From: Escherichia coli
GTDB taxonomy: Bacteria > Pseudomonadota > Gammaproteobacteria > Enterobacterales > Enterobacteriaceae
Assembly (NCBI RefSeq): GCF_003018115.1
Contig: NZ_CP027457.1
Strand: one strand, 5' to 3'
DNA: 64,000 nt
This document shows positions 737 through 39,280 of this stretch, piece by piece. The notes under the pieces were generated by a model. That model worked only from the letters and a program-made list of their open reading frames with translations, did not search any database and was not told where the DNA came from. The position numbers and the translations under genes were made by a program. Position 1 is the stretch's first letter, and each line of letters opens with the position of its first letter.

Positions 737-856
737 AGTCACTCCGTGATGAATATCATGTTATTGTGAATGCCAGTGAATGTGGCACTGAAACGTTTTC
801 CCCCGTCCGGGTCCCGGTCATGATGACCGGGACCACAGAGAGGCAATGCAGAATTA

Positions 857-18285: not shown

Positions 18286-19001
18286 TGCCAATCATGCAAA
18301 TAGGCTCGTTACACTTGCTGGTCAACCGTAAGGCGATTAAGAATCTGCATATCAGCGTGCTGCCGCCTGATGGCAAAGTCCGCGTTTCAGCGCCGGAACA
18401 TATGACGGAGACGGCGATTCGTATGGCGGTTGCTTCACGCTTTCGCTGGATCAGAAAACAGCAGCAGGATTTCGCCAGACAGCCTCGTCAATCAGAGAGG
18501 GAAATGGTCAGCGGAGAGTGCCACTATCTTTGGGGCCGAAGATATCGCCTACTTGTGATTGAGCGTCACGGGCGTCACGAAGTAAAAGTTGCGGGAAATA
18601 ATAAGCTCCAGCTTTATGTTCAACCGGGAACCCGTGATGAAAATAAGGCATTGGCGTTAAGTGAATTTTATCGACATGAACTAAAACAGCAGGTGGCTAA
18701 GCTTCTACCTGAATGGCAGGACCGAATCGGTGTTCCCCTAACATTCTGGGGCATCAAAAAGATGAAAACCTTTTGGGGCACCTGTAACACTACAACAAAA
18801 CGAATCTGGCTCAATCTGGAGCTAATTAAGAAGCCGCCGGAGTGTCTGGAGTATATTCTGGTGCATGAACTGGTTCATCTTCTGGAACGTCACCATAATG
18901 CTCGCTTCCGGTTGCATATGGATCGGTTTATTCCTGACTGGCGTGAGCGTCGGGATTTGTTAAATAATATGCCGTTAGCGTTTGAGGCATGGGAGTATTG
19001 A
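18285..19001 (+). CDS. HExxH zinc metallopeptidase (M48/DUF45-like) coupled to hsdR
   Basis: HELVHLLE motif; ATG overlaps the hsdR stop (TGATG at 18283-18287). Confidence 0.8.
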   Translation: MPIMQIGSLHLLVNRKAIKNLHISVLPPDGKVRVSAPEHMTETAIRMAVASRFRWIRKQQQDFARQPRQSEREMVSGECHYLWGRRYRLLVIERHGRHEVKVAGNNKLQLYVQPGTRDENKALALSEFYRHELKQQVAKLLPEWQDRIGVPLTFWGIKKMKTFWGTCNTTTKRIWLNLELIKKPPECLEYILVHELVHLLERHHNARFRLHMDRFIPDWRERRDLLNNMPLAFEAWEY

Positions 19002-19452: not shown

Positions 19453-19878
19453 ATGGAACAGAAAATATTATCCTCAGAACCCCGCAGATCATTTTCAAAT
19501 GAGTTTAAACTTCAAATGGTTAAACTGGCTTCACAACCAGGAGCCTCTGTTGCCCGTATTGCCCGGGAACACGATATCAATGATAACCTCCTGTTCAAAT
19601 GGCTCAGGCTCTGGCAGAACGAAGGGCGTATATCGCGGCGTCTTCCGGTAACAATCTCTTCTGGCGCTGGCGTTGAATTATTACCTGTTGAGATAACGCC
19701 TGATGAGCAGAAAGAGCCTATGGCGGCTCTTACTCCGCTTTTATCCACTCCTTCACAAAGCACAGTCAGTGCCAGTTCCTGTAAAGTTGAGTTCCGCCAC
19801 GGTAACATGACGCTGGAAAATCCTTCACCAGAGCTGCTCACGGTGTTGATCCGTGAACTGACCGGGAGGGGACGATGA
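19453..19878 (+). CDS. tnpA: IS66 accessory protein TnpA (orfA)
   Basis: 141-aa ORF with HTH-like ASVARIAREHDINDNLLFKW; first ORF of the IS66 element. Confidence 0.8.
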   Translation: MEQKILSSEPRRSFSNEFKLQMVKLASQPGASVARIAREHDINDNLLFKWLRLWQNEGRISRRLPVTISSGAGVELLPVEITPDEQKEPMAALTPLLSTPSQSTVSASSCKVEFRHGNMTLENPSPELLTVLIRELTGRGR

Positions 19879-20225
19879 TCTCGCTCCCATCAGGTACCCG
19901 TATCTGGCTCGTTGCCGGCGTTACCGATATGCGTAAATCCTTCAACGGACTGGGAGAACAGGTACAACATGTGCTGAATGATAATCCCTTCTCCGGTCAC
20001 CTGTTTATCTTCCGTGGCCGACGGGGTGACACCGTCAAAATTCTTTGGGCTGATGCTGATGGTCTGTGCCTGTTCACCAAACGCCTGGAGGAAGGCCAGT
20101 TTATCTGGCCTGCGGTACGTGACGGCAAGGTATCCATTACCCGCTCGCAACTGGCAATGCTCCTCGATAAGCTGGACTGGCGTCAGCCAAAAACATCCAG
20201 CCGTAACTCACTGACAATGTTGTAA
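19875..20225 (+). CDS. tnpB: IS66 accessory protein TnpB (orfB)
   Basis: 116 aa; start overlaps the tnpA stop (ATGA); typical IS66 orfB position and size. Confidence 0.8.
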   Translation: MISLPSGTRIWLVAGVTDMRKSFNGLGEQVQHVLNDNPFSGHLFIFRGRRGDTVKILWADADGLCLFTKRLEEGQFIWPAVRDGKVSITRSQLAMLLDKLDWRQPKTSSRNSLTML

Positions 20226-20255
20226 AAAACTCCTGACCGCATTATAAAAACGGTC

Positions 20256-21869
20256 ATGAGTCAGAAATACCTCATTCGCATCGCAGAGCTGGAAAGATTG
20301 CTCTCTGAGCAGGCTGAAGCCCTCCGTCAGAAAGACCAGCAACTGAGTCTGGTTGAAGAGACGGAAGCCTTCCTGCGCTCTGCACTGACACGTGCCGAAG
20401 AAAAGATCGAAGAAGATGAACGGGAAATAGAACATCTGCGGGCTCAGATAGAAAAACTGCGCCGGATGCTGTTCGGTACCCGTTCTGAAAAACTGCGTCG
20501 TGAAGTTGAACTGGCTGAGGCTCTGCTGAAACAACGTGAACAGGACAGCGATCGTTACAGTGGGCGGGAAGACGATCCTCAGGTTCCCCGCCAGTTGCGA
20601 CAGTCGCGCCATCGTCGTCCGTTACCGGCACACCTTCCCCGTGAAATACACCGCCTGGAGCCAGAAGAAAGCTGTTGCCCGGAGTGTGGCGGTGAACTGG
20701 ATTATCTGGGGGAAGTCAGCGCTGAACAGCTGGAACTGGTGAGCAGTGCCCTGAAAGTGATCCGCACAGAACGGGTAAAAAAAGCCTGTACAAAATGTGA
20801 CTGTATTGTTGAAGCACCGGCGCCGTCCCGCCCGATAGAGCGTGGTATCGCGGGCCCCGGATTACTTGCCCGCGTGTTAACGGGAAAATACTGCGAACAT
20901 CTGCCACTGTATCGTCAGAGTGAAATCTTTGCCCGCCAGGGTGTCGAACTGAGCCGGGCCTTACTCTCCAACTGGGTTGACGCGTGCTGCCAGTTAATGA
21001 CACCGGTGAATGATACCCTGTACCGTTATGTAATGAACACCCGCAAGGTTCACACTGATGACACACCGGTAAAGGTACTGGCACCGGGTCAGAAAAAGGC
21101 GAAAACAGGGCGTATCTGGACGTATGTCCGGGATGATCGCAATGTGGGTTCGTCATCTCCTCCAGCGGTCTGGTTCGCGTACTCGCCGAACCGGCAGGGG
21201 AAACACCCGGAGCAACACCTCCGCCCCTTCCGGGGTATCCTGCAGGCGGATGCGTTCACAGGTTACGACAGGTTGTTCAGTGCAGAACGTGAAGGTGGTG
21301 CACTGACAGAAGTTGCGTGCTGGGCCCATGCCCGGCGAAAAATCCACGATGTATACATCAGCAGCAAAAGTGCGACGGCAGAAGAAGCCCTGAAGCGAAT
21401 CAGTGAACTGTACGCCATCGAGGATGAAATACGGGGATTACCGGAGTCAGAGCGTCTTGCCGTCAGGCAGCAGCGAAGCAAAGTGTTACTGACGTCGCTG
21501 CATGAATGGATGGTGGAGAAGAATGGTACGCTGTCGAAAAAATCCAGACTGGGCGAAGCGTTCAGCTATGTACTGAATCAGTGGGATGCCCTCTGTTATT
21601 ACAGTGATGACGGTCTGGCGGAGGCGGATAATAATGCTGCGGAAAGAGCGCTTCGTGCAGTCTGTCTCGGAAAGAAAAACTTTATGTTCTTTGGCAGCGA
21701 TCACGGCGGCGAGCGTGGAGCACTGTTGTACGGGCTGATCGGCACCTGCCGTCTGAACGGTATCGATCCGGAAGCGTATCTGCGCCATATCCTGAGCGTA
21801 CTGCCGGAATGGCCTTCCAACCGAGTTGATGAACTCCTGCCATGGAACGTAGTACTCACCAATAAATAA
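20256..21869 (+). CDS. tnpC: IS66-family transposase TnpC
   Basis: 537 aa; N-terminal coiled-coil/leucine-zipper-like region and Cys cluster CCPECGGE...CTKCDC, ends LLPWNVVLTNK. Confidence 0.9.
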   Translation: MSQKYLIRIAELERLLSEQAEALRQKDQQLSLVEETEAFLRSALTRAEEKIEEDEREIEHLRAQIEKLRRMLFGTRSEKLRREVELAEALLKQREQDSDRYSGREDDPQVPRQLRQSRHRRPLPAHLPREIHRLEPEESCCPECGGELDYLGEVSAEQLELVSSALKVIRTERVKKACTKCDCIVEAPAPSRPIERGIAGPGLLARVLTGKYCEHLPLYRQSEIFARQGVELSRALLSNWVDACCQLMTPVNDTLYRYVMNTRKVHTDDTPVKVLAPGQKKAKTGRIWTYVRDDRNVGSSSPPAVWFAYSPNRQGKHPEQHLRPFRGILQADAFTGYDRLFSAEREGGALTEVACWAHARRKIHDVYISSKSATAEEALKRISELYAIEDEIRGLPESERLAVRQQRSKVLLTSLHEWMVEKNGTLSKKSRLGEAFSYVLNQWDALCYYSDDGLAEADNNAAERALRAVCLGKKNFMFFGSDHGGERGALLYGLIGTCRLNGIDPEAYLRHILSVLPEWPSNRVDELLPWNVVLTNK

Positions 21870-21909: not shown

Positions 21910-22284
21910 CTATTTCTTGATTCCTAAACGGAACATATCAGTTGGGAATAAAGGTTGTATTATCACTTCATCATTAAAAATGAATAATTTGGGCGATAAA
22001 GCTGTTACGTCATAGATATTTTCAGCGATTAATCTTAGATTTGACCTAAAAACTGGAATACTTGCATCATCTGCAAAGACAAACATGTCATCGTTTTTTA
22101 CAGAGTTTGCACACAATAGCTCATCAAAACTCTCATAATCAGAATGCCAGATCTCTGACCAAGTAACACTTCCTTTCGCGAGAGGGTACTTATTTAAAAT
22201 GCCCAGAGCCTCCTGCTGAGCCAGCCCCTCTACTATATTAAAATCAGCACTCAGTGCTTCCCGACACTCATCAAATAAAGTCAT
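21910..22284 (-). CDS. cdiI: orphan CDI immunity protein (pair 4)
   Basis: 124-aa ORF directly downstream of orphan cdiA-CT 22290-23657 with a 5-nt gap. Confidence 0.6.
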   Translation of the reverse strand: MTLFDECREALSADFNIVEGLAQQEALGILNKYPLAKGSVTWSEIWHSDYESFDELLCANSVKNDDMFVFADDASIPVFRSNLRLIAENIYDVTALSPKLFIFNDEVIIQPLFPTDMFRLGIKK

Positions 22285-22289
22285 TTGCT

Positions 22290-23657
22290 CTACCTGTTTA
22301 GCTGTTTCAATATTGTTTCAAAAGACTTTTCATTGCCTTCAAAAGGTATGACTTGCTTCACCGCTTTTCCAGGGCCTTTACCCTGCGAGTAATCCCATAT
22401 ATTGATGTGTGTGCCTTTTTCAGGATCATAATCAACACGCCAACCAACTTTTCCGTCGCTGGATTGCCGCCCTATGACTTTCCCATTACCAGCGCTGACT
22501 TCCAAACGTCCGATAACTGGCTTAGAGTCCGCTCCTAAATTACCTACAAGATCCAATGCCTTGTTTCGAGCAGTTTCCCAGTTTTTCTCTGGCTTGAGGA
22601 TTTGTTCAATTTTAGGCTGGGAATTCCCTTTAACCTTACTAATTCCCCCAAATGCTGACGCCGCAGCGCTCGCGACTATTCCCGCCTGAACTTCATCCAA
22701 ACCGTATTCTTCTTGGAGTGCTTCCGAGACTTTGTTGGTCGCGACAACCCCTTCAGCCTGCATTTGCTGCGCAAAAGTCGCCGTCAGATCGTAGACCATT
22801 TTGATCGGGATATCTTCACCCAGAGCACGATCTATTGCCTGCTTCACCGCCAGACTGTCAGTCAGTACATCACCGTATTTCTGCTGGCAGGTTGCCGGGC
22901 TGGCTGCACAGTCACTGATCAGTTGCTTTTGCTGTGCCGTACTCAACTCTTCGTACTTTTTGATAATACCGCCGCAGTCACCGCCTTTCGCCTGACAGGA
23001 CTTCATTTCAGCGGACCAAGCATCTATCTGCTTACTGCTCAGATAGTTATTCTCAACAGCATTCTTCCCGCTTTGTGCTCCCACTGCTGCTGATGCGGTG
23101 CTGTTTCCGGTAAGACCTCCGGCCAGCCCTGCTGACACGGTTGCCAGCGTACTTATCGTTTGCTTCTGCTCTTCACTGAGGTCTGACTGTTTCACGCCCG
23201 GATACAGCATGCCGGCAATCGCTCTGACTGCCAGCTCTCCCGTTGCTGCGCCTGCTGCACCGGCAGCAACATTATTACCCTGCATTGCCGCCACTGCGCC
23301 GCCCAAAATGGCGTGAGCAATGGCGTTTACTGCCGGGTCTTTTTCTGTTGATTTCAGCAGGTGCGCCAGTTCCGGAGCCGAAGTTCCGGCCAGAGCACCC
23401 GCTAAATTACCCCCCGCCAGCCCCTGAAGCGCGGCCTGGATACCCCGCTGAATTTCACTGCCGGTACCATACTTCGCCATTTCATCCCTGTAAGCCTGCG
23501 TGTCACGCAGTTTTGCCAGATATGCCTGCCGCTGCTCTTCCGTCGCATCCGCCGGAACAGGCCCATATTTATCCTGCGCAGCCTTCAACGCATTCAGTTC
23601 CCCCTGCGTCCGCGCAATATCAGCCACCTGACTGCCTATGTCACTGATAAGCCCCAC
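22290..23657 (-). CDS. cdiA-CT: orphan CdiA C-terminal fragment (pre-toxin region, VENN motif, toxin domain)
   Basis: Contains [11 protein letters not shown]; region before VENN is homologous to the pre-toxin region of the full cdiA in this window; no upstream secretion domain. Confidence 0.75.
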
Positions 23658-23742
23658 TGTCTGCAGACGCTGCTGCTCTTTTTCCTTGTCAAAGATGGAA
23701 AAGCAAAAAAACCAGCCAACTGAACTAGCTGGTAGTTAAAGT

Positions 23743-24006
23743 CTATTTGATTTTGCTTAAAATATTATTGACTATCGGTATTACAGAACTAACCAATTGC
23801 TCTTCCTCAACTGTATACAAAAGCAATTCGATCTCATTCTCCGCATTAAATAACATTGTATGGAGCCACTTTTCCTCAACAGCAACAATTTGGCTTTCCG
23901 CAGCATAAATTTCTGATTGAATACTTTGTACCGTTATTTTCCCTTCAAGAAAGTTTTTACAAGAGTGTTGTAACCTCTCGATCACCTCAGGATAAATCCA
24001 ACTCAT
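23743..24006 (-). CDS. putative immunity protein (pair 3)
   Basis: 87-aa acidic ORF overlapping the stop of the upstream toxin-like ORF by 4 nt. Confidence 0.45.
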   Translation of the reverse strand: MSWIYPEVIERLQHSCKNFLEGKITVQSIQSEIYAAESQIVAVEEKWLHTMLFNAENEIELLLYTVEEEQLVSSVIPIVNNILSKIK

Positions 24007-24719
24007 TGCCCACTCCTGCGAAGAATAGTAACAATAATATTACTGTTATTTTCAGTGACTACACCTACGTCACCACTCCAATAAGTCGTTCTAGTTACGC
24101 CATTAACGACACTATTTTGAGGAGTTCCTTCTTTGATAACACTTTCAACCATATTCGGCGTTATATTTCTCCCTGGGCCAACTGTGCCGGCTGGAGAACC
24201 AGATGGCTGCATTCTATCAACAGCATGTTGTGAATACAAACGATGACCTATTTGTGCATATTGTCGCCCATCTACTGTAACCTTTCGATAATTTTGCCAA
24301 GAGTCCCAAGGTAACTTTTCAGAACTATTAGGTACGTTTTCTGATGAGGTTTTCTCATTACGTTGCTCTATTGATTCATTATTCCTGGCGTTCTCCTCAT
24401 CCTGCGGCTCCCATCCCCCCGGTGTTCCAGCACCTGCGCCACCAAGCTCAGCTTTCTCCTTGTCCGTAGCGCTCGCTACGTCTTTGCCCAGATTCGGCTG
24501 TTTGTTTTCGTCTGTATTGTCGCCATTCAGCACATACCCCGGCCCCCGGGCACCATCGCGACTCGGATCACGTACAGCACACTGTTCCCGTGAGCCTTCA
24601 CAACCACCACCGGTATCCCAGCTATTATCATTCCCGGTATCCTTACTGGCATTACCTGTAGCACCAGCTATTGCTGCTGCCGTATTAGCTGCTGTTTCAG
24701 TGGCTATCACGTTCAGCAT
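24003..24719 (-). CDS. orphan polymorphic-toxin C-terminal domain protein (no VENN visible)
   Basis: 238-aa ORF in the orphan array, coupled to a small downstream ORF; toxin fold not assignable from sequence alone. Confidence 0.5.
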   Translation of the reverse strand: MLNVIATETAANTAAAIAGATGNASKDTGNDNSWDTGGGCEGSREQCAVRDPSRDGARGPGYVLNGDNTDENKQPNLGKDVASATDKEKAELGGAGAGTPGGWEPQDEENARNNESIEQRNEKTSSENVPNSSEKLPWDSWQNYRKVTVDGRQYAQIGHRLYSQHAVDRMQPSGSPAGTVGPGRNITPNMVESVIKEGTPQNSVVNGVTRTTYWSGDVGVVTENNSNIIVTILRRSGQ

Positions 24720-24736
24720 ATTGTTTTCAGCAACAA

Positions 24737-24955
24737 CTATTTACGATAGTATCTTCGCATTTGTAGATAGAGTTGTAACCAAATCCCAGCACCTCCCCAT
24801 AAGCCAACTACTGCGCCAATTATTCCGTATTTTACATACACCTCAGAAGGTATTGGTTCCCGAGCTATAAGCCAGATACTAACCACTATTCCAATAGAGC
24901 AAGTAGCTATAGATATAAGTAACAACTTAATAAGAAGTAGTAGATGTTTTTTCAT
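24737..24955 (-). CDS. cdiI: small membrane immunity protein (pair 2)
   Basis: 72 aa, two hydrophobic segments (LLLLIKLLLISIATCSIGIVVSIWLI and IIGAVVGLWGGAGIWLQLYL); overlaps the upstream toxin stop. Confidence 0.6.
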   Translation of the reverse strand: MKKHLLLLIKLLLISIATCSIGIVVSIWLIAREPIPSEVYVKYGIIGAVVGLWGGAGIWLQLYLQMRRYYRK

Positions 24956-25809
24956 TTTTTGTCTCCATCAACTTCTTTTTGCGTTGCGCTGCTTGCACCT
25001 TCTGATACGAATGAACCAACAAATCCACCAAATGTTCCTGGTATAGAGCTCATTTGGCCGCCTTGATACATACCGTATCCGATAGACTTTTCCGAATATT
25101 GCAGTGAATATTTACTGGCGTCCATTCCCAGTTGATTTTTGATGTATTGAGCTTCTAACTTATTAGTAATTGAAGCCCCAATGTTATAGCCAAGGCCTGT
25201 ACCAGCCATGCTACCCACTACTGATGCGGTACTGTCCTGGCCTTCAATCTGGCTGCTCATGTAAGCGCTACCGGCACCCAACAACTGATTAGCGTAATAT
25301 CCTTTCCCGGCTGTACCTACACCAGTCAAGCCTGACATCATGAAACTGAGATAATCGAACTTATCACCGATATTTCCCGTACCAATTTGTACCGCACCAT
25401 TAGCCCCATAGCTCAGCCCGGCACTGACAAATTTTTCAGTCAGCGTGGCTGATGATGTTAACAATGAACCCGCTCCGGCAACCGTACCCCAGTAATTTTC
25501 CGGTTCCCCGAAGAAAGCCAGAGCCTTATCACCTTTCGATGTGTTGTTGTTCAGATAGTTCAGGTCATAGCTGTTACTTTCAGTGACGTAGTTCTTCACG
25601 TCCTGGTTTTCCAGCGAACCATACAACCAGCCAGGCCGACCTGCCGCGCTGAGTCCGCCCTCAATATTCCATTTATCTTCCCCGGACAGAGCCGTCAGAG
25701 GATCTGTGGCCACATCAATGTGTAATTTCTGTCGGTGCTCTGCGCTTATTACAGCATATTTATTCTGAATATCGCCGCAGTCTCCACCCACTTTACGACA
25801 GGCCGTCAT
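24952..25809 (-). CDS. cdiA-CT: orphan CdiA-CT, glycine-rich membrane-active (ionophore-like) toxin domain
   Basis: In-frame VVVENNYLS is encoded at about 25836-25860, upstream of the first Met; body rich in G-x-x-x-G/A runs. Confidence 0.65.
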   Translation of the reverse strand: MTACRKVGGDCGDIQNKYAVISAEHRQKLHIDVATDPLTALSGEDKWNIEGGLSAAGRPGWLYGSLENQDVKNYVTESNSYDLNYLNNNTSKGDKALAFFGEPENYWGTVAGAGSLLTSSATLTEKFVSAGLSYGANGAVQIGTGNIGDKFDYLSFMMSGLTGVGTAGKGYYANQLLGAGSAYMSSQIEGQDSTASVVGSMAGTGLGYNIGASITNKLEAQYIKNQLGMDASKYSLQYSEKSIGYGMYQGGQMSSIPGTFGGFVGSFVSEGASSATQKEVDGDKK

Positions 25810-26173
25810 TTCTCTGTCAAAAGCATGCGCCTCGTCGTAGCTGAGGTAGTTATTCTCAACAACAACTCTTTCCGACGTAAGTTGCTGCGATGAACCCTAT
25901 TTTCTCCTTGCCTTTCCGTGAATTACAACCGTTTTCCCCTGCTGTACTTCCTGCCTGCCAACTTTTTGCCCCGACGCGCCTTTTTCGTCTGAACACGCTA
26001 CCGCCCCGGTGAAAAGTCCACCGAGTAAATAGCCTGCGGCTATTTAACATAACGCGCGGGAATTATGCGCAGTTCAGGAGGCCGAACCACGCATAATCAG
26101 CGTTATGTCTTGCGCCCTTCAGAAGCCTGCGATAGTGCAGGCTGACAGTCAGGAGACCCAGACGGTTAAGATA

Positions 26174-26467
26174 TTAACTGTCGGGCTCTCCTTTTTTATT
26201 ATTTTTATAATCAATCATCAAGTTATTCACCTCATTCCATAGTTGCTCATCGTTAAATTCGTATTCTTCACGATCATTATCTGGGTTGTACATATCAGCC
26301 ACACAGAAGACACTGGATAATAATTCACTTAGATTATCATTATCTTGCTTAAGTAGGTTACTATCACGCTCACCCTTCCACTTCGCCATATAAGTGTCGG
26401 TAAAATATTCAGCCGATATATTCTTAGCAAGAAAATCATCAATGTATTTTTTAAGAGACTGACTCAT
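26174..26467 (-). CDS. cdiI: orphan CDI immunity protein (pair 1)
   Basis: 97-aa acidic ORF whose start overlaps the stop of orphan toxin 26464-27237. Confidence 0.55.
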   Translation of the reverse strand: MSQSLKKYIDDFLAKNISAEYFTDTYMAKWKGERDSNLLKQDNDNLSELLSSVFCVADMYNPDNDREEYEFNDEQLWNEVNNLMIDYKNNKKGEPDS

Positions 26468-27237
26468 CTTAATGTCCCGTTATTTATGAAGTTTTCATAT
26501 TGCTTCGTTTGAGGATCAAGCTTCCACCCACTAACAAAATTACCAGATTTATCAATTACAACCACATTATTAGTTTGTGGATTGAAGAACACCTTTGATT
26601 CTGGAATTAATAGGTATGTCCCATGTTCATAAGTCGTCTTATTATCTAAATGTGATTTGATGGCAGCCTGATATTCTGCAATGGTATCACTATTTTTCTT
26701 AGTTGTTATTACGCCAAAATCAGAAGCATGTTTAAATTTCTTATCTAACTGTTTTGCGCTGAAAGCGACACTATCAGAGACGATTGTAGCTCCAGCATTT
26801 GGAATTTTCTTCCCTGGAAGTATAAGGCTAGCCAGTATTCCGCCAGTTGCTTCCAGCGCAGCCTGGTTCCCTCCATACGCTTGTTTCACATTCTCTGCTA
26901 CTGCTGACCAGGTTTCACTTTGCATCAGCGCTTTAACGCTGTCTGCCACTGCCTGATTTTTACCCGCCAAATCACTCAGTGCTTTATCACAATAGCTTTC
27001 GCCGGTTGCACATGAGGCGAGCGCCATTGCCGCATCACCCACATAATCGGCTGAGCCTATTGCCGTATCACCGGAGTCAGCGATGACATTAATAATGCCG
27101 TTGGCAATAGCCGATGAGGCTCCGTCTCCCAGCTTATCCCTGACCTGTGTTTTCCACCATTCAGCACTTTGTTTGACCGATTCCCTGGCCTTATCACCCG
27201 CCAGCGAGTTATTCTCAACAACAACTCTTTCCGACAT
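26464..27237 (-). CDS. cdiA-CT: orphan CdiA-CT-like toxin beginning MSERVVVENNSL
   Basis: VENN-type junction directly after its own ATG; 257 aa. Confidence 0.65.
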   Translation of the reverse strand: MSERVVVENNSLAGDKARESVKQSAEWWKTQVRDKLGDGASSAIANGIINVIADSGDTAIGSADYVGDAAMALASCATGESYCDKALSDLAGKNQAVADSVKALMQSETWSAVAENVKQAYGGNQAALEATGGILASLILPGKKIPNAGATIVSDSVAFSAKQLDKKFKHASDFGVITTKKNSDTIAEYQAAIKSHLDNKTTYEHGTYLLIPESKVFFNPQTNNVVVIDKSGNFVSGWKLDPQTKQYENFINNGTLR

Positions 27238-27438
27238 AAGTTGCTGCGATGAACCCGGATTCTCCCTGCATTTTCCGTTAGTTACAGCCGATTTTCCCTG
27301 TTGTACTTCCTGCCCGCCAACTTTTTGTGCTGTTAAGCGTTTCTGGCCCCGCAGACGCTACCGCCCCGCCGTGACGCGCCACCATCATATAAGCAAACTA
27401 CAGCACCACTTAGGATGGTGGTGTCTTGGATTTATATT

Positions 27439-27822
27439 TCAATTAAGAAGTTCCTTTGATACGTTACCAGTATCAAAAAACTCTTTTAAGATCTTTACAA
27501 TAAGTTCACAGTCTTTTGTAAGCTGAGATTCCGGCCAGTAATCACCAAGAATCACCATTTTTGTATCAGGTTTAGATGAGTCCCAGTACGTTCTTACTTG
27601 GTATTCATCTTCAAAAATTTCACCTAATGTTATCAAGTAATAACCATTCTCCGTTCTGATCTGAAGCATTTCAGCGCTATTATCGCCACTGTTCTGTATA
27701 TCAAGAGTAAGTGTTCCTTTTTTTCCCTGAATTAGTTTAAACTGATTTAATACCATGTCCCAATTTGAGATCTGTTTATTGCCACCTGTTTCGCCCAGTG
27801 TCCAACTCACTTTAAAATTCAT
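27439..27822 (-). CDS. cdiI: cognate CDI immunity protein for the CdiA C-terminal toxin
   Basis: 127-aa ORF starting 2 nt after the cdiA stop; canonical cdiA-cdiI arrangement. Confidence 0.7.
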   Translation of the reverse strand: MNFKVSWTLGETGGNKQISNWDMVLNQFKLIQGKKGTLTLDIQNSGDNSAEMLQIRTENGYYLITLGEIFEDEYQVRTYWDSSKPDTKMVILGDYWPESQLTKDCELIVKILKEFFDTGNVSKELLN

Positions 27823-27823
27823 T

Positions 27824-30800
27824 TTAATCCCTAACCTTGAGAGATTTCATGCCAGGCTGCCAGTAGAGGACTGATCCTGTAGCCTCTTCATAAATTGTTA
27901 AAGATTTTAGCCCCGCTTTATCAGCCATGGCTGCTATATCACCGCGGCAATAACCACATACAGGCTCTTTAGATACACTCATTGTCATCTCACGCCCTTG
28001 AGACATACCCTTTTCAAAAGCTTGCTGTATAACACCTACTTCAGCATGAGCTGTAGCCATATTGCCGTTAGGAAGAGGCTTGTTTTGCTTATCTATTTTA
28101 GCTTGGATTCGTCCATCAATGAGTGTTGGCTTATTCACATCTGCTAAGTTGGAAGGCCTTGCACCCTGATTAGTATCAGTAAACTTAGCTCCATCAACAT
28201 TACCTTTCGCTACGACCTTAAGATTAGCATCAACGATTTTACTTAATTGTTTTGCCGCAGCAGAACCCAAAATTGGTGTCACCGAAGCCGCAATGCTCTC
28301 CAGACCCTGCTTTGTTTCGGTGTAGCTTTCTGCGGTCTGACGATCCACCCCTTTGGTGACCATGAAATAGTTAATCATGGCGTCTTTCACCTGTTGCTGA
28401 TTCTGTGCATCAACACTGGTGATATCGAGGAGATTGACCATCTGACCATACGCATCAGCGTATTGCTGGCTGTATTTCGAGTTATAAGGGCCATCTTCGT
28501 ACCCTTCTTTCGACGCAATAACTTTCAGTCTTGCGCTGGCACACGCTGAACTACCCGCATTACCATTACCGCAGGCAGCAATAACCTCCTTATCACTGGC
28601 AATATCTTTCTCACGCAGAGCATTATATTTCTGTTGCGCCTTTTCGCGCTCTGCCGGATCTTTACTATTTTTAAGCGTCTGTTTTGCTATCTCAAGCTCT
28701 GTCTTTTCAGACACGCTAAGATAGTTATTCTCAACCGCGTTCCTGCCTGCCTGTGCCCCCGTACCGGCAGACGCCGTACTGTTGCCTGCAAGCCCGCCCG
28801 CAATACCTGAGGCAATGGTGGCCAACATGCTGATTTGCTGACGTTCCTGTTCACTCAGGTTATCAGTACGACCACCATAGTAGTTATCAATGATATACCG
28901 GGCTGCAAGTTCACCGCTGAATGCCCCTGCAGCACCGGAAGCCGCATTGTTTCCGCCCAGTTGTGCGGCAAGCGCTCCCCAGACTGCGTGAGCCATCAGG
29001 TTTGCTTCCCGGTTATCGCCGGTGGCCTGTTTTATAAGCTGTGCCACTGCCGGATTCAGACCGCCAGCCAGTATCTGCCCCGGATTCCCTGCATTCAGTC
29101 CGCCCAGCACACCCGTGATGGCCTGTACCACCATCTGCGGCGTACTGCCCGTACCGTAGCCTTTCATGACCTCTCTGTATTCCGGGGTCTCCCGCAACTG
29201 TGCATCGCTCATGCCAGGATGCTCTTTCCTGGCTGCTTTCATCGCTTCAGTTTCGCCATACGTCATGACGATGTTACTCATCTGACCGCTAATCTGGCTG
29301 ATAACCTGCGCTTCCTGCAGACGCTTCTGCTCTTTCTCCCTGTCAAATATCGGTGCAATGCTGCCGTTGGCGTTTTCCGGGTCCCGGCTGAGCCCGGCAA
29401 TATCCTGCTTCTGACTCTCATTATCACGGATAATGAGATTTCCGCCGCTGATGGCGGATGACGTGGTACCTTCAGCATGTCCACTGCTGCCGGACATACC
29501 GGTAAGTGCGTTCGCCGCACCGGCTATTGCATTTGAGGCCACCATCTGGCTGGCTGACATCCCTGAGCCACCCGATAAACTGATTCCGGTATGGCTGGCT
29601 TTATAGTCTGCCTGGTTATGGATATCCGACCAGCCCAGCGTATTGGTATTGAGGCTGTTTTTGTCATCCGTTGCCGTGGACGCAATTACCGCACCATTGA
29701 GCTGAGTGTGATTCCCAACAGTGACATCAAACCCGTCTTTTCCGGCGTAGATACCACTCTGTTCCCGGACAGAATCGTAATTGCTTTTAATTTTGTCCTG
29801 ACTGATGCTGGCATAGCCGCTGCCGGACATTGAGCCAAACGTGAAGCTTCCACCTGCAGCCACGCTGTTCTGTCTGCTGTCGTAACGGTCACTGTCCTGA
29901 AGGCTCGAAATGGTCAGGTTGTTGCCGACATCTGCTGTGACTTTCTCGCCACTGACCTGAGCCCCCGACAGGGTGGTATCACGTCCGCTTGTGAGGGAGA
30001 CATTTTTACCCGCATCCAGCGTGGTTTCGGTCCAGGTCGTGCCGTTGCCTTTCTCCCTGCCCTCTGAACCATTGATACCGGCGAAGATACTGAGGCCTCC
30101 GCCATTGGTTCCACCACCAAAGCTGACGCCCACGCCGCCACCTTTGCTGCTGTTCTTCCCGGTTGTCTGTCGGGTGTCAGCGGCGGCAGCCAGCAGAATA
30201 TCGTTCTGTGCATTCAGGCTGGTGTCATTGCCGGACTTAATCTGGCTCCCGGTAATGAGAATATCGCCGCTGTTGTTATGGTCCTTATTTTTCCCCGTGG
30301 CAGTGACAGAGACATTGTTACCGGCGCTGAGGGTTGAGCCGGAGACGATATCGTGCTGATATTTCGTCTCAGACTTCGACTGCTGATGGTTGAGCGAAAT
30401 GCTCACGCCGATACCATTATTCGGGTCAGCACTCTGTTGCTGCAGTCCGTGGTTAACACCGGCCTGTACACCAGACAGAACCGCCTGTGTTCCTTTCAGT
30501 GCCGCCAGACGGCTGTCGCTGGTTTCTTTCGCCTCCCGGGCCATGGTGGCAGCATTATTGATGGCACTGCCCACTGTGCCGGAAAGGGCAACCGTCAGCC
30601 CGCTTTTCTTCTGCTCAAATTTTTCGTCCACAGTACGACGGTCATGCCCCGGGTCAACCACCACACTGTCACCGGTAATGCTGATATCCCGGTTCGCAAT
30701 CACATCCGAACCGCTGATATGAGCCTGTTTGCCCGCGGTAATACTGACATTACCAGCAGTGGAGCCGATGGTGCTGGCACTCTGACTCTGCGTTGTCCCG

Positions 30801-33800
30801 GCCTCGCGGCGGTCGTGCGTTGTCTTACTGCTGCCAGTGGTGAAACCAATACCGCCGGTACCCGTCAGACCGGATTTCTTCGTTTCCTTAAAGCGCCAGG
30901 ACGTATCTGTACTGGTGGCAGCAAGAACATCAACATGGTTATCCGCCGCCAGTGACACATCCCAGTCAGCCACCACATCCGAACCCTGTACCGTCAGGTT
31001 ATTACCGGCGTTAACGGTCACGCGGTTTCCCGACAGCAGGGAGCCCTTCTCACGGGTGACGCTGTCTTCCGTGATGGTCCGGGTGGTCTGATGGCTGAGG
31101 AGACGGTTACGGGTTTCCCCTGATTCACTGTAGTGATAATCACTTTCCGTGGCAGTACCCAGTACGATGTCATGACCGGCATTCACACGGATATCGCCCT
31201 TTGCCGTTACAGCGGTCGCAACTGAGGTGATATCCCGTCCGGCAGTAACCGTAATGTCACCGCCACTGGTCATGTCTGTTCCCTGCTGCCGGACCGAATC
31301 ATGAACCGTCTTCATGCTGAAAGTGCTGTCGTGGTCACCTGCGCCTGTGGACTCCGCAGCCATGTTCACATCCCGTCCGGCGCGGATAGCCATACTGTTT
31401 TCAGCCGTAATACCGGCAGCCTGGCTGTTCACATCACGACCGGCGGAAAGCATCAGACTGTTCCCGGCAGTGACCGTGGGGGCCACGGCATGAGTTTCAT
31501 ACCACCCGGACCCGCCATAGCGACGACGTTCTCCGGCCTGTATCGCGTTCATGTTCAGGTCATTACCGGCGGACAGTAACACGCTGTCACCGGCAGAAAC
31601 GGCGGCACCGGTGATACTGATATCCCCGGCTGCGCCCATAAACAGTGAGTCCGTTGCCCTGACAGCAGCCAGCGGACCGGTATCCGTTCCGCTGAAATGG
31701 TTATATCCGTTGTTCATCGCCCACTGTTCTGTCCGGGTGAGGTTACTGATGTTTCCGGTGGCGCTTTCCAGGGATACGGTTTTACCGCTGATGACTGAGC
31801 TGATATTGCCGATATCCCCGATGGCCTTCAGGTTCAGTGCACCACCGGCGTTTATCAGTCCGGCATTCAGGTTGTCGATACTACCTGTGCTGTCGAGCAG
31901 GAGGTCATTCTGTGCGTTGATGCTGCCGCCGCTGTTGGTGATATTGCCACCCGCAAGCTGCACGTTGTTCCCGCTGATAACGCTGCCATTATGAAGGGTG
32001 ATATCTTCCGGAGACAGATACAGTTTCGGAACCATGACTGTCTGTCCGTTGATGGTGACTGACTCCCACCACAGCAGGCTTCTGGTCAGTTGTGCAACCT
32101 GCCCGGCGGTCAGCGACACTCCAAAGGTCAGTCCGAGCGCTTTCTGTTGCGCTGCCGCGCTGTCCATCAGGTATTTCATCTGCGCCAGGTCAGAGCCTGT
32201 GCCGTTAATATAACGTGAGCCCGTCTGGTTCAGTATGACGTTACTGACATACCGGGTATCAAAAGCCGCATCCCCCAGAAAGCGGTAATCTTTTTCCGGT
32301 TTCAGGCCAAGACGGTCAAGAATGTACGACGAGCCCAGAAACTGTTTTTCATCGGTATATGCCGGGTCTGTTTCTCGTGGTGCCTGTCCGGGTTGCATCC
32401 TGAGCAGGTCATACAGTCCGGCAAACAGACTGCTGTCCACCTTTCCGAGACCATCCAGTTTCGGGTTCACCGTAATCAGATACGGACTGTCCGGGTCCGT
32501 GGACGGGACAAAATAACCATTGTTACCGGATGGCAGGGGATAGTTGCTTACACTTGCCCCGGACAGCGACAGCGCACCCGGGATATCCTTCAGCGTATCC
32601 GGCAGCGCGTCATTCCATACAGGGCCGGTTATCCCGGTACCGCTTTCATTCAGCAGGGCTTCACCGCTCACCCCCTGACTGACCGTCGGTGGTGTCAGGG
32701 AGTTCAGCGAAGGCACCGTTATCGTGTTACCTGCACCACCTGCCCGGGGCATGACAGTGGTATTACCGGTGTCAGTGGCAAAGCTGGCAGACACATCACC
32801 GGCAGCGCTGATAACCGCACGGTACTGACCTGCCGGAGAGGTGCCACTGGCTTCTGTCGCATCCGGCGAGACCTGGCGATAGACCTTATACCATGGCTCA
32901 GTAAACCACGCTTTGGGGAGTGAGCCGGAGGCAAGCCGCCAGACCGTTTCCTTTCCGGTGGTCCCCTCCTGCCAGCCCTGATTGTTCAGTGTGTCGCCAC
33001 TCAGGGTCATACTGCCACCGGCGAGAAGAAACGATGCCTCATTATCCAGTCGTCCTGCACGGATATGCATATCAGCGCCGCCGGATATCCGGGCAGCATG
33101 ACCGGAGGCACTGACTGTCACCGTTTCCGTATCGCCCGTACGGATACGGTATTCATCAGGTACCGTGGCACCCTCCCCCCAGTACACGGCCAGATATTCC
33201 ACACCATCATGCCGGACAACACCCCACCAACGGTTATTTTCCGGAACCGGTGAAATCACCCCGCGACTGCTTCCAGGAATGACCTCATGGCTGGCCGAAA
33301 TGGCATCCCAGGAATTCAGCAGATGCGCCGTATTCATGGTGATATCGCCACGTGTGGTTTCAATATTACCGGAACGGTTAATGATTTCGCTGTTTGCCGT
33401 ACCGCTGCTGTCCTTCTGTACCCACAGACTGTTGCCGGCCAGGATATCACCATGCTGGTTATGCAGACGGTCTGTAAACAGCTTCAGGTTATTCCCCGCA
33501 TAAATCAGCGCACTGTTCAGCAGGGTACCGGCCACATTCATTGTCAGACTGCCTGCCGTGCCGGTAAAACCACTGATGGTGATATCACTCCGGCTGTTCA
33601 GACTCACATCGCCACCGGCCTGAAGTGAACCCGGTGCGTTAAGGAAAAGACGCTGTGCGCTGAAAACACTGTTGCCTTTACCGGCAGTCAGCGTTCCATT
33701 GTTGGTGAATGCCTCTCCGGCACCGAGCACCATGGCATCACCCAGCATGACACCGCCGTTGGTGATGGCATTTTGCGACGTGACGGAAAGGGTTTTCCCT

Positions 33801-36800
33801 GCGGCCAGGGTACCGTAATTCGTGAGGGCAGCAATCAGTTTCAGTGTGACATCACCGGTGGCCACCACCTGGCCCTGACCACTGAAGTCCTGAGCGTCAA
33901 GCAGCAGGTTGCCTGCACTGTACAGCCGCCCTGTACCATTTTGCAGCAGTGAACTGCCCTTGACGCCAAGCCCGGAGGTTCCCAGCAGGGTACCGCTGTT
34001 GCTGAATGTGTGGTAATTCACCAGCAGATCCGCACCCTGAAGCGTACCGATATTATTCAGCGTGGTTCCTTTAACGTCGGCACTGCCGGTGGCAAGTACG
34101 CGTCCGCCGTTGACAGTATTCACCACATCCAGCAGCAGGGTGGCAGCCTGTACCAGTCCGCTGCCGGTGTTCGCCAGCACCTGCGCCGTCAGCGTGAGGT
34201 TACTGCCGGAGAAGATTTTGCCGTCGTTCTGCAGACGGTCAGTGGCGTTCAGGGAAACCCCGCCACCACCCTGTATCGTGCCCTGGTTACTCAGGGTCGC
34301 AGTACTGACATTCAGTGCATTCCGGCTCATCAGAACACCACCGGAACGGTTGTTCACGCCACCGGAGGCGGCCAGCGTCAGCGTTTCGCCCTGCAGATGC
34401 CCGCCGTTTGTGAGTTGTCCTGCCGTGATGGTGGTGGCATTTCCCTGTAATTGCCCGTCGTTTGTGACACTGTCTGCCTTCAGCGTCAGCACACCTGCAC
34501 TGAGCAGTTTTCCGCTCGCGTGATTGTTCAGCGTCTGATTCACCGTGAGCGTGAGAGCATCCACACCGGTGATGTCACCCGCACTGGTCAGTGAGTTCGC
34601 CTTCAGAGTCAGATTTTTTGCAATCCATTGTCCGCTGTTGCTTAAATTCAGTGCACTGAGCGCCATTTCACCGTTCGAGGTGACTTTGCTGCCTGCTGTG
34701 CTGACAAGCTCACCCGTCAGACGTGCAGTCAGGCTGTCAGCCGCCTGGATCGCCCCGCTGTTTGCCAGACTGTCTGCGGTGATCAGCACCCGTTTGCCCT
34801 GCCAGTGTCCGGAACTGGTAATACTGCCTGCGGTGATTGTCAGATCGCCGCTGGTCAGCAATGAACCTCCGTTATTCATCAGCGCAGGTTGAGGGGATAC
34901 CATACGAGCAGCAAGCGTCAGCGCGGCAATCCCGGTGAGCGAGCCACTGTTGGTGACACTGTTCTGGCGAATCGTGACATGGTCACCCTGGACAGTGCCG
35001 CTGTTATCCAGTGAGTTTCCATCAAGGGAGAGCGTGCCGGCCGAAAGCAGACTGCCCCGGTTGTCCGTGGTGGCTGCTTTCAGCGTGGTGTCACCCTGGC
35101 TCATGATATCGCCGGTACTGGTCAACTGACCGGTTGCCGAAGCAGTAAGGTTACCGGTTGCCAGTACGGAACCACTGTTCGCCCATCTGTCCGCCTGCAC
35201 GGTGAGATTCTGTCCCTGCGTGGTCCCTGCGGTATTCAGTGTTTTACCCCGGAGGGAGAGGTCGCCCGCCGTCAGCCAGCGTCCGTTACGGCCCTGTGAG
35301 AGGGTGTCGCCTGCAAGCGCCAGTGCACCTGCGCCCTGCAACAGGCCATCGCCATCCAGCGTGGTCGCCCTGACGTTCAGCGTGTCAGCGGTGATTTTTC
35401 CCGGATTGCTGAGGGAGGCAGTGTTTAACGTTAAACCGTTATCACCGGTGATAAGCCCGCTGTTGCGGATGTCCGGTATATCCAGCGTCAGGTCTGCAGC
35501 ACTGTACAGCGTGCCGTTCTGCTGATTATCAAGCCTCTGTGTGTTAACGGTGAGTGAGGCCTCCCCCTGCAACAGACCGCTGTTGGTCAGGGTCTGTGAC
35601 TGTGTATTCAGGGCGGAAGCAACAAGTACGCCGCTGCTGGTCAGTTCCGGCGCAATGAGGCTGAGCGACGGGGCACTGCTTTTCCCGCTGTGGGTGAGCT
35701 TTTCACTGGCGTTCACCACCATGGTCTGTTGTGCTGCCTGCGTACCTGCAAGACGTGCATCTCTGGCGTTGATGCTGAGATTTTTGCCGCTCTGAAGTTG
35801 TGCGCCCGCTGCGGTACTCAGTTTGTCTGCCTGAACCCGGAGGGTGTCACCGGCACTGGTTTCCCCGTCCAGCGCCACGGTTGTCACATTCAGCGTCATC
35901 GCAGCATCGCTGTGGGTGACTGATTTTTTACCGGAGCTCAGCGTCTGCGCACTGACTGTCAGCCCTTTGCCGCCGGACAGCACACCGTTCTGTGTCACAT
36001 CCTGCGCCTTCAGCACCAGTACATCATCGCTCACCAGCGAACCTGTACTGGTCAGTTTCCCACTGGCTGTGATATCCACTTTGCCCTTCGCGCCAGTGCG
36101 GCCGCTCTGGGTAAAGTCGCGGGTATTCACGGTCAGGCGACCGCCACTGAGCAGGGAGCCACTGTTGCTGAGCGTTGTACTGCCGAGCGTCAGGGAAGCC
36201 CCCTGAACAGCACCACTGTTATTCAGCGTGCCGGCATCGAGTCCCGCATGACCTTTCGCCAGCAATATTCCGTCCTGTGTCAGCGTGGTGGCGCTGGCCG
36301 TGAGATTCTGCCCGGCGGTTATCTGTCCCTGTGTTGTCAACGTGTCACTGGCGACAGTCACAATATTGCGGGCCGCGTTAATCTGGCTGGCGGTATCCTG
36401 TGTGATGTTTTTCGCGGCAAGCGTTACATCCCGGCCGGCAGTCAGTTTTTCATTCTGTTGAGTGATTCTGCCGCCGGCGGTCAGGCTGAGGTCCTTGTCG
36501 CTGTTAAGCGTTCCATTGCTGAGAACGATATCGCTCCGGCTGCTGACGCTCAGGTTACCTCCCGCTTTATGGTCGCCGGTTAAGGTGACGCCCTGACCTT
36601 TTGCAGTGACGGCCCCCGTGGCGAGACTGTTGTTGACAGTCAGTCTGCCGCTGGCATCCAGGGTGATATCGCCATCGCGGGCATAAAGGTTACCAAGATT
36701 AACCCCGACACCACTTTCAGTGGAGGTCAGATGAATACGCCTGGCGTACATTCCACCGAGCGCGCCGGTATCAACGGCAACTTTCGGCACATCACCTTCG

Positions 36801-37501
36801 CCCTTCAGTGCACTGACACGACCATCTGCAGTTATCCGGTTAGCGCCTGCAGTGACAGTTAAATCCTTCGCATGAAGCGCGGCATTCACTTCCGTTGCAC
36901 GGGCAATAATGGATACGGCATCGCTCCGGGTGCCGTCCAGGCCCGCGCCATTGATGGTGATACTGCCTTCAGTCACCTCCAGCGCCTGCAGGCTGCCGTC
37001 GGCATTCATCACAGGTCTGCCCGTGGTGAGCGTCGCGTGCGGCGTGTTGATAAAACCACAGCCGTCACAGGTGATACCATACGGGTTGGCAACAATCACA
37101 TTCGCCGCTTTGCCGGCCACTTCCGTATAGCCCTGCAGCAGTGAACGGTTACCGCCGGTCACTTCGTTGATGATACCCTTCGCTTCCCCGCCCGCTTTCA
37201 GGTTCGGGTTATTCTGTATCAGTCCACCAAGCTGCGTCGGATTAAGCTTACCGGTGGCATTATTGAGAATCAGCCCTTCCTTCCCGACGTTGTAATCCGT
37301 AAACCGGTTATGCGAAATCCCGGCCCCGTTCGGCGTGGCAATGTTCACGACCGGCACACCATTTGCCGCTTTATCCATTCCGGCCCCGTTTTGTGGGGTG
37401 ATGACGGCCCCCACAGCCGGTAACAACGGCTGCCCGGCGATAATCGTACTGATAAGGTAACTCAGCAGGCGGTAAGTGAAGCGAACGGGAGGCTGATGCA
37501 T
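27824..37501 (-). CDS. cdiA: contact-dependent inhibition exoprotein CdiA (3225 aa) with a deaminase-like C-terminal toxin
   Basis: N-terminal two-partner-secretion domain ([21 protein letters not shown]), long repeat region, pre-toxin VENN ([11 protein letters not shown]), C-terminal HAEVGV...(~25 aa)...PVCGYC. Confidence 0.95.
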
Positions 37502-37513
37502 GGTAATAATCCC

Positions 37514-39280
37514 TTAAAACGCGACGGCAACGCGCCAGTAAACCGTGAGATGGTCAGGGGCAAGCCAGTCCGGGTAGACCAGAGGCAGTCCGGCGGTGAA
37601 CGAACCGGAAACATGACCACTGGTGGTGCTGAGCCCGGCAGCAGCACCCCACAGCGTGCCGGACGAGTACGGGTCATCGCTGTCAGAGTGCAGCCAGCCG
37701 CCGTCCAGTGCAGCCACTGCACGGACAGTTCCCACATATGGCAGGGAGAACAGAGACCAGGACAGCTCATTTCGCAGATAACCGCCGTTATTACCGGAGA
37801 TATACTGCTCCTTAAAGCCACGCACTGAACTCTCACCCCCGAGGCTCAGTTGTTCCACACCATGAAGACGGTCCGGTGACCACTGGGCATAAGCGCTGGT
37901 CAGCCACCACACCCTGTCCGTGACGGGGCGCTGAAAACTGGCACTCACCGACCATTTCCGGAACTGATTTACGGGCAGGTCTCCCCTTTTCCCGTGGTCG
38001 CTTTCTGCGCCGAACCAGGGCATCCCCCGTGTGAATACCGGATTCAGTGTTCCGACCCCCCCCAGAAACTTGTGTGTGTGATTCAGCCCGACAGAAAATG
38101 AAGTGAGTTTACGGCTGCTGCCCTGAAGCAGAACATCATCCAGATAATTGTGAATAATGCGGTGCTGCAGACCTCCGGTCAGTGCTGTCTTCATGTCCCC
38201 GTTACGGAACAGAACATGCGACAGTCCCAGCCGGTGAGTCTGCAGGTCTCCCGTGGAACGCCACCGCCAGCCCCGGTTATCAATGGTGCTGAGGTAGTCA
38301 CTCCATGAATACGTGTAATCCACCAGGGTATAGCCATACGGCAGACTGACACCGGCGGCAAAATTCCTCGCATCATGTGACACCGAAAAGTCACTGCTCC
38401 GTCCCCCGCTGACAAACCAGTTGTCAGCCAGCCCCAGCGGATTATTAAAGGAAAGGACACCATTTAACTGCCCCGTACCGGTATTCTTCTGTCCGCTGTT
38501 GTCGAAGCCCGCGCTCCCTGTGACAGGCCATTCCGGCGATGCCGTCAGTGTCACCACCGACCATCCCTCACGGTCACCGGGCGATATTTCAATCTGTACC
38601 GGCTCCGTACGCAGACGGTTAATCTGCTCCATCCCCTGCTCAATATCCCGCAGGTTCAGAACCGCCCCCTCCATTCCCGGGAAAACCATCTTCAGGGTGC
38701 GGGCAGGAAGGTCAGCGCCTTCCGCCCGGATTTGCTGCAGCCTGCCTTCCATGACCGTTATGTGCAGTACGCCCCCTGAAAGGTCCTGCTCTGTCAGAAA
38801 GGCCCGGCTGGTGATATATCCCCGACGTATATAGCCGTCCGTCACAGCATCCGTGACCGTGGTCAGCCCCGTGATATTCAGACACTGATTCACCCACGGT
38901 GCCACCAGTCTGTCGGTTTCTGCAGACGTCAGTCGGGTGGCCCCACTGACAACAATGCGTGACACCGTAAAGCAGGGACCTTCAGTACCGGCAGACGTTT
39001 CCCGAGACGGTACAACAGTCAGCGGCGTACTGCGCTCCAGCGCATCACGCTGACGCTGGTTTTCATCCAGCAACTGCTGCTGTTGCTGCTGAATTGCACT
39101 GCGGTCACCCGGAGACAGCATGGCTGCCGGAGACGAAAACGAAAGAATACAAAGGCAGGGGAGGAGGGAAAAATAGCGTGCCACCGGAGAGAAAGTGCGG
39201 AGCTTAAATGCGCACTGACCGGAAACCATACCAGGCAACAAATTTCTGTTCGCCAGTAAGTTATCCTGCCGGTGCTGCAT
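37514..39280 (-). CDS. cdiB: CdiB two-partner-secretion outer-membrane transporter (Omp85/TpsB family)
   Basis: 588-aa ORF ending 12 nt upstream of cdiA with a terminal aromatic residue (WRVAVAF), typical TpsB position and size. Confidence 0.9.
   Translation of the reverse strand: MQHRQDNLLANRNLLPGMVSGQCAFKLRTFSPVARYFSLLPCLCILSFSSPAAMLSPGDRSAIQQQQQQLLDENQRQRDALERSTPLTVVPSRETSAGTEGPCFTVSRIVVSGATRLTSAETDRLVAPWVNQCLNITGLTTVTDAVTDGYIRRGYITSRAFLTEQDLSGGVLHITVMEGRLQQIRAEGADLPARTLKMVFPGMEGAVLNLRDIEQGMEQINRLRTEPVQIEISPGDREGWSVVTLTASPEWPVTGSAGFDNSGQKNTGTGQLNGVLSFNNPLGLADNWFVSGGRSSDFSVSHDARNFAAGVSLPYGYTLVDYTYSWSDYLSTIDNRGWRWRSTGDLQTHRLGLSHVLFRNGDMKTALTGGLQHRIIHNYLDDVLLQGSSRKLTSFSVGLNHTHKFLGGVGTLNPVFTRGMPWFGAESDHGKRGDLPVNQFRKWSVSASFQRPVTDRVWWLTSAYAQWSPDRLHGVEQLSLGGESSVRGFKEQYISGNNGGYLRNELSWSLFSLPYVGTVRAVAALDGGWLHSDSDDPYSSGTLWGAAAGLSTTSGHVSGSFTAGLPLVYPDWLAPDHLTVYWRVAVAF

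Follow-up and report, generated by a model that had tools for sequence, protein, structure and literature searches.

The window analysed here, a stretch of 64,000 nucleotides from Escherichia coli (contig NZ_CP027457.1, assembly GCF_003018115.1), carries a contact-dependent inhibition (CDI) locus whose effector, CdiA, ends in a toxin domain with the predicted fold and the catalytic residues of a deaminase. The toxin is probably a zinc-dependent deaminase of cytosine in nucleic acid, most probably in DNA, which would be imported through the glucose transporter PtsG and blocked by an immunity protein, CdiI, that mimics DNA; the probability of this reading is put at about 0.6. Established here are the domain make-up of the CdiA tail, its fold, invariant catalytic residues, toxin and immunity genes that form a pair, and a structural kinship of CdiI to DddI, the immunity protein of the double-stranded DNA (dsDNA) deaminase DddA of Burkholderia cenocepacia (PDB 6U08); PtsG dependence, the deaminase chemistry, DNA as the substrate and the way in which CdiI inhibits are inferred.

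The chromosome of E. coli 2014C-4135 (NZ_CP027310.1) matches the window at 100% identity. In the list of open reading frames (ORFs) of the window, the genes stand in the order cdiB-cdiA-cdiI, all on the minus strand, and comprise a transporter gene of TpsB type, a large effector with filamentous haemagglutinin repeats and a VENN motif, and a small immunity gene directly downstream, which is the layout of a CDI system. The C-terminal region of CdiA (CdiA-CT), 303 residues long from VENN to the stop codon, consists of two parts. The features are as follows:

37514-39280, minus strand: cdiB, 588 amino acids, outer-membrane transporter of the two-partner secretion pair (ShlB/FhaC/HecB family in the identical RefSeq record)
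27824-37501, minus strand: cdiA, 3225 amino acids, filamentous effector with the polymorphic CdiA-CT at its end (named cdiA in NZ_CP027310.1)
28724-28735, minus strand: VENN motif, CdiA residues 2923-2926, onset of the variable CdiA-CT, read from the sequence
28238-28723, minus strand: PtsG-dependent type of cytoplasm-entry domain, residues 5-166 of CdiA-CT, with Pfam DUF6862
27833-28225, minus strand: toxin domain of deaminase type (Pfam Deam_C; MafB19-like clade), residues 171-301 of CdiA-CT
28040-28048, minus strand: HAE motif, with His3152 as predicted zinc ligand and Glu3154 as predicted catalytic proton shuttle
27947-27958, minus strand: C-G-Y-C motif, with Cys3182 (27956-27958) and Cys3185 (27947-27949) as predicted zinc ligands and Tyr3184 between them
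27439-27822, minus strand: cdiI, immunity protein of 127 amino acids, Pfam DUF6911, acidic, with a DddI-like fold

A first-pass annotation of the same DNA had quoted the C-terminal peptide of CdiA, and this peptide is reproduced exactly by the minus-strand translation of 27824-29020, the end of the 3225-residue ORF; the VENN junction that it placed at about 28725-28736 is present but lies one base away. The adjacent 127-residue ORF that it proposed as the inhibitor gene exists and starts one base past the stop codon of cdiA. The GC content is about 0.56 ahead of VENN and 0.38-0.43 over the toxin domain and cdiI (window 27400-28900), and such a low GC content past VENN is expected for a CT/immunity cassette that is exchanged or acquired horizontally. 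The RefSeq/PGAP product name for CdiA is "contact-dependent inhibition effector tRNA nuclease" despite the deaminase-fold toxin domain; since that name derives from a family-level model, it is misleading for the present allele.

Family, fold and clade of the toxin domain

The first-pass annotation had read a deaminase signature at the end of CdiA and proposed a Pfam search of the last ~130 residues together with a structure prediction. Deaminase families do match in Pfam: Deam_C (PF24241, "putative cytidine deaminase, C-terminal domain") is found with E 2.3e-51 over model positions 4-134 of 136, and weaker partial matches are given by MafB19-deam (E 2.2e-6) and dCMP_cyt_deam_1 (E 4e-4). The His, the Glu and both Cys are invariant in 39/39 homologues and in 28 more distant full-length carriers, while approximately 25 further positions are invariant or near-invariant in the alignment of the 39 homologues; judged from the sequences, the deaminase signature lies far beyond chance expectation. 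Of the motif as first described, HxE (as HAE) and CxxC are present but PCxxC is not, as the protein reads P-V-C-G-Y-C with the proline two residues ahead of the first cysteine, a proline kept in only 13/39 homologues. Similarly, the spacing from Glu to the first Cys, given as about 25 residues, is 28, which falls inside the range of 24-36 that separates [HC]xE and CxxC, on successive helices, in the cytidine deaminase (CDA) superfamily. Between the two cysteines stands an aromatic residue in 39/39 homologues (Y in 28, F in 10, H in 1), the domain is basic with an isoelectric point (pI) of 9.1, and a large conserved insertion (TNQ...PTLI...PNGNM) stands beside the active site in the strand-2 region.

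The AlphaFold2 (AF2) model built from the 39-sequence alignment, with a predicted local distance difference test (pLDDT) of 96 and a predicted template modelling score (pTM) of 0.90, has a deaminase fold, so that the structure prediction proposed in the first-pass annotation came out positive. In the model, a beta-sheet core carries both motif helices packed on one side, as in the CDA fold, and the order of elements is strands 1 and 2, an insertion with one helix, the HAE helix, strand 3, the CxxC helix, and strands 4 and 5, with no helix 4; this predicted topology is that of the deaminase superfamily's "C-terminal hairpin" division. When the model was compared with known structures, the top match was a synthetic PPR-DYW RNA editor (9kfx), with a score of 10.1, followed by DddB (9k3e; 8.2), cytidine deaminase (3dmo; 7.7), the DddA-related TOD6 (7.5), APOBEC3H (7.3), SsdA and DddA (6.5 each), and TadA (5.2). 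None of the solved structures is close to the modelled fold. In the sequence searches, phmmer of CdiA-CT against PDB returned, besides the entry domain, only a non-significant TadA-type deaminase from Agrobacterium (2a8n, E 1); a profile search of the toxin against PDB gave no match, and neither the CT nor CdiI nor any of three orphan ORFs downstream had a match in NCBIfam.

It has been reported by Iyer et al. (2011) that the MafB19 clade is marked by an Asn at the end of strand 2, HxE, a Val at the end of strand 3, a basic residue in +xxCxxC, and a Gly opening strand 4, and that its carriers are type V secretion systems (T5SS), type VI secretion systems (T6SS) and MafB. The family consensus of the present toxin has 5/5 of these features and the protein itself has 4/5. 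The Asn is N17 of the domain, directly after strand 11-16, and is found in 36/36 ungapped sequences; V82, at the end of strand 77-83, is invariant in 39/39; and the Gly is G103, in 31/39, with strands 106-111 and 117-120 of the AF2 model joined without a helix. The basic residue ahead of CxxC is the Lys of G-K-x-V-C in 22/39 homologues, while in this protein, which reads K-E-P-V-C, the Lys lies one position farther off. The domain shares with the clade the Asn, HxE, Val, CxxC and Gly, the C-terminal hairpin, and the position at the C-terminus of T5SS and T6SS carriers; it differs in that its best Pfam model is Deam_C, with PF14437 matched only partially (E 2e-6).

The first-pass annotation had likened the toxin to DddA and the SCP1.201 family, a placement that did not survive the signature tests and is corrected here to MafB19/Deam_C. 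The SCP1.201/BaDTF1 signature [HD]xEx[KQ] is not found, as the protein reads HAEVG with that Gly in 38/39 homologues; the Asn at the end of strand 3 is replaced by the invariant Val; and PF14428 is absent among Pfam hits up to E 10. The DddA-like feature that is present is the immunity protein, which is of DddI type (Imm1-like). In addition, Tyr3184 sits where DddA has Phe1375, the residue between the CxxC cysteines that acts as a wedge intercalating into dsDNA, although this aromatic residue is a resemblance to the DddA wedge and no demonstration of function. Membership in Pput_2613/BaDTF3, the family of DddB (Taylorella equigenitalis; PDB 9K3E), was also rejected: HTE, PCxxCK and the GFP-tipped helix-hairpin-helix of that family are missing, whereas the present domain has HAE (Ala in 38/39), VCGYCRG and the TNQ...PTLI...PNGNM insertion with no GFP, and PF14427 gave no hit for the toxin domain. 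DYW/BaDTF2 membership (SsdA) was rejected on hallmarks, since the domain lacks SGW, the second-zinc site CxC and a C-terminal DYW (the PG box was not checked); the toxin ends in ...KSLKVRD and has no Cys after CxxC.

Immunity protein and entry domain

CdiI is a DUF6911 protein (E 1.9e-38) with 83 homologues across Enterobacterales; it is acidic, with a pI of 4.6 against a family median of 4.45. The profile of the CdiI family matches PDB 6ANZ (E 9e-10), an uncharacterised protein of Neisseria gonorrhoeae that is itself a DUF6911 member (E 8e-35). The fold of CdiI and DUF6911 is structurally akin to that of DddI, and the comparison links DUF6911 and the orphan entry 6ANZ to the DddI immunity fold and thereby offers a function for 6ANZ. 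It has been reported by Yin et al. (2026) that DddI and DddBI share a fold and that both block, by DNA mimicry, the DNA-binding face of their dsDNA deaminases. No other contextual evidence argues as strongly for DNA binding by the toxin.

The expectation that the Neisseria DUF6911 genes would lie in maf islands beside a MafB deaminase failed, as they lie between plsX and fabH with no toxin. In Neisseria meningitidis CP020423.2 (4723-5640 of the locus examined), a DUF6911 gene and two small ORFs stand between plsX and fabH; the gene is found on more than 1000 contigs, and the locus looks like an immunity-only islet.

The first 166 residues of CdiA-CT match CdiA-CT EC3006 (PDB 6VEK_A) with E 7.3e-70 in phmmer against PDB, and DUF6862 is found in this entry region (Pfam, E 1.2e-10). 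The counterpart region of EC3006 is a cytoplasm-entry domain that needs PtsG as well as the proton gradient (PMC9424206); given this homology, the import route is probably the same, and PtsG dependence of entry is suggested by the ~75% identity to the tested domain. The likeness to EC3006 is confined to the 166 residues after VENN, whereas the cargoes are unrelated (a tRNase in EC3006, a deaminase fold here), as are the immunity proteins.

Proposed mechanism and alternative explanations

In the proposed mechanism, CdiB would export CdiA to the cell surface; upon contact with a target E. coli cell and binding to its receptor, the region after VENN would be moved to the periplasm and cleaved off, and the entry domain would cross the inner membrane by means of PtsG and the proton gradient. 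Once in the cytosol, the C-terminal domain, basic and ~130 residues long, would bind nucleic acid, with zinc held by His3152, Cys3182 and Cys3185, and Glu3154 would catalyze the conversion of cytosine to uracil. The expected outcome would be C-to-T mutations and, when the dose is high, a stop of growth together with DNA damage caused by uracil repair, while the producer would be shielded by the acidic, DddI-fold CdiI, which is expected to mask the side of the toxin that holds the active site and binds DNA, in the manner of DddI and DddBI. DNA is favoured as the substrate on indirect grounds: the immunity protein is acidic and has a DddI fold, the toxin is basic, CxxC holds an aromatic residue, and toxins of the MafB19 family deaminated single-stranded DNA (ssDNA) and/or dsDNA in two in vitro screens (bioRxiv 10.1101/2023.06.29.547047; 10.1101/2023.05.21.541555). 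EcDa01 (MafB19 family), from the in vitro deaminase screening, might be this E. coli toxin.

Several results weigh against this mechanism. The DNA activity seen in the screens transfers to the present toxin only indirectly, as the preprint of one screen states that its "MafB19" set is based on the Iyer profile, unlike Pfam PF14437; and for neither this protein nor any demonstrated Deam_C member did the literature search find an experiment. The DUF6911 (DddI-like) immunity protein is not of the SUFU/SUKH type listed for the MafB19 clade, a feature that is associated with the clade but does not define it. Foldseek of the toxin model returned no PDB match below E 0.001. Profile-sequence comparison by hhalign of the toxin with DddAtox (a sequence 100% identical to 6U08_A) was non-significant, with a probability of 7%, although it registers HAE with HVE, GMSQG with GISEG, and CGYC with CGFC.

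The toxin might instead be an RNA cytidine deaminase that edits or inactivates tRNA, rRNA or mRNA, as plant DYW domains do, and inhibits growth through translation; this is considered unlikely. RNA is the target of most characterised E. coli CDI toxins (PMC11630599), 4/5 of the bacterial families active in one in vitro screen are reported to have members that surpass APOBEC3A on RNA (bioRxiv 10.1101/2023.06.29.547047), and a DYW RNA editor is the top structural match of the model. However, identity to DYW is only 10%, and of the DYW hallmarks (PG box, CxC second-zinc site, C-terminal DYW; eLife 2021) the latter two are absent here; the bacterial DYW-like toxin SsdA acts on ssDNA and not on RNA (PMC7901873), and the immunity fold is that of the protein protecting against DddA, which acts on dsDNA. 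Even less probable is a substrate other than polymeric cytosine, which could be adenine in tRNA or DNA, as for TadA, or free nucleotides and nucleosides (dCTP, CTP), with poisoning of the pools. HAE is also the motif of TadA, 2a8n is the sole PDB sequence match outside CdiA, and one homologue carries the JGI label TadA; but the 2a8n match is non-significant, and a polymeric substrate is indicated by the conserved strand-2 insertion, by the basic toxin and by its acidic immunity protein of DddI fold.

That the domain is an inactive or decaying relic, keeping a deaminase-like fold after the loss of toxin function, appears very improbable. It would be in keeping with the many database entries that are 78-residue fragments from an internal Met54, and with the promoter-less orphan copies of the module in E. 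coli 89-3156 and Erwinia. Yet in the window an intact cdiA of 3225 residues ends with the domain in frame, cdiB is intact as well, and cdiI is tightly coupled; the catalytic residues and some 25 others are kept family-wide, and the immunity gene is retained and diverges along with the toxin. As a separate observation, many of the 78-residue "deaminase" proteins in databases are ORF calls that start at Met54 (MATAHAE...) and so have neither strands 1-2 nor the insertion. In a 2026 survey of T6SS in Salmonella, a 77-residue "DeamC" effector with a weak Foldseek match to DddB was described (PMC13304343), and this SPI-6 "effector" is probably such a Met54-start remnant and not a complete toxin.

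Distribution, gene neighbourhood and significance

The toxin profile matched 366 clusters at 50% identity among 1.84 billion representative proteins. The deaminase domain is invariably C-terminal, in carriers from 80 to 4900 residues long; among 28 sampled carriers, PT-VENN was found in 8, haemagglutinin repeats in 6 and PAAR in 1, and 25/28 had a MafB19-deam match at E <= 0.1. One Deam_C-bearing protein also has Phage_portal_3 and LPD22 domains, which hints that the domain may occur on a phage or polyvalent-protein carrier as well. In one strain of Erwinia persicina, the Deam_C and DUF6911 pair makes up the tip of a full-length CdiA, and in two others it is an orphan module downstream; an Erwinia homologue has TPS, Fil_haemagg, PT-VENN, DUF6862 and Deam_C, then DUF6911. 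Within E. coli, 3 of 5426 complete genomes hold exactly this module and ~20 genomes hold a related one; strain 89-3156 has an identical module as an orphan behind another cdiA, and the RefSeq name of the orphan copy is "cytidine deaminase-like fold-containing protein". Between E. coli M8 and the window, identity is 72% for the toxin and 43% for the immunity protein, as is usual when toxin and immunity pairs co-diversify. In M8 (1733-2242 of the locus examined), a "polymorphic toxin type 25" orphan and more VENN fragments come after the related deaminase/DUF6911 pair; this cassette array has the same architecture as that of the window with other content.

Downstream of cdiI, at 21910-27237 of the window, lies an array of orphan toxin and immunity modules:

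26464-27237: colicin D-like CT beginning VVVENN
26174-26467: colicin-immunity ORF, paired with the colicin D-like CT
24952-25809: glycine-rich CT fragment
24003-24719: DUF4258 protein, with a small partner at 23743-24006
22290-23657: VENN orphan at the end of the array, with a CDI immunity gene at 21910-22284

Elements of the IS66 family (tnpA/tnpB/transposase) flank the array at 19453-21869, with three consecutive IS66 copies in the identical RefSeq record. Farther along, a 1031-residue ORF (15190-18285) resembles, from a reading of its translation, the R subunit of a type I restriction enzyme, and the 238-residue ORF after it (18285-19001) is an M48 family metallopeptidase according to RefSeq; together they resemble a restriction-modification island adjoining the CDI locus.

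Deaminases delivered by CDI were predicted in 2011-2012. Recently, Halvorsen et al. (PLoS Genet 2024; PMC11630599) listed an E. coli CdiA-CT "type 17" with a MafB19 deaminase and PtsG entry as predicted and uncharacterized; its exemplars are STEC 2573 (WP_077879060.1), with PtsG entry, and 696_ECOL (WP_049080366.1), with SecY entry. By the description in that table, type 17 and the present system share the species, the CdiA carrier, the predicted PtsG-type entry, the Pfam-level toxin assignment and the standing of a predicted, uncharacterised toxin, while E. coli has at least two sub-variants of the toxin module, including the M8 type. A link from this CdiA to WP_077879060.1 was sought through the 90% cluster, which holds a single sequence. 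Because these predictions, the Pfam family and the type 17 entry already exist, the present toxin is a further member of a known, predicted kind. New here are the feature-by-feature test of the clade, the DddI fold of DUF6911, the conserved aromatic residue of CxxC and the data on co-diversification. The biology would not surprise a specialist, and the predicted enzyme is a small one from a clade without a solved structure.

A more far-reaching proposal, tentative and on balance doubtful, is that Deam_C/MafB19-like toxins form a further class of dsDNA cytosine deaminases beyond DddA and DddB, with a DddA-like aromatic wedge between the zinc cysteines, a conserved strand-2 insertion of their own and a DddI-fold inhibitor that mimics DNA; this class might then also be the first CDI-delivered mutagen of E. 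coli amenable to experiment, as well as a compact scaffold of ~130 residues with a different context preference for CRISPR-free base editing. The small domain with its ready-made inhibitor CdiI could bring a new context preference to the toolbox of dsDNA and ssDNA deaminases. Work on DddA showed that survivors of sub-lethal exposure to such toxins have higher mutation rates and more frequent antibiotic resistance. Should the toxin prove active, the locus would encode a CDI system that acts by mutating neighbouring E. coli instead of cutting their RNA or DNA.

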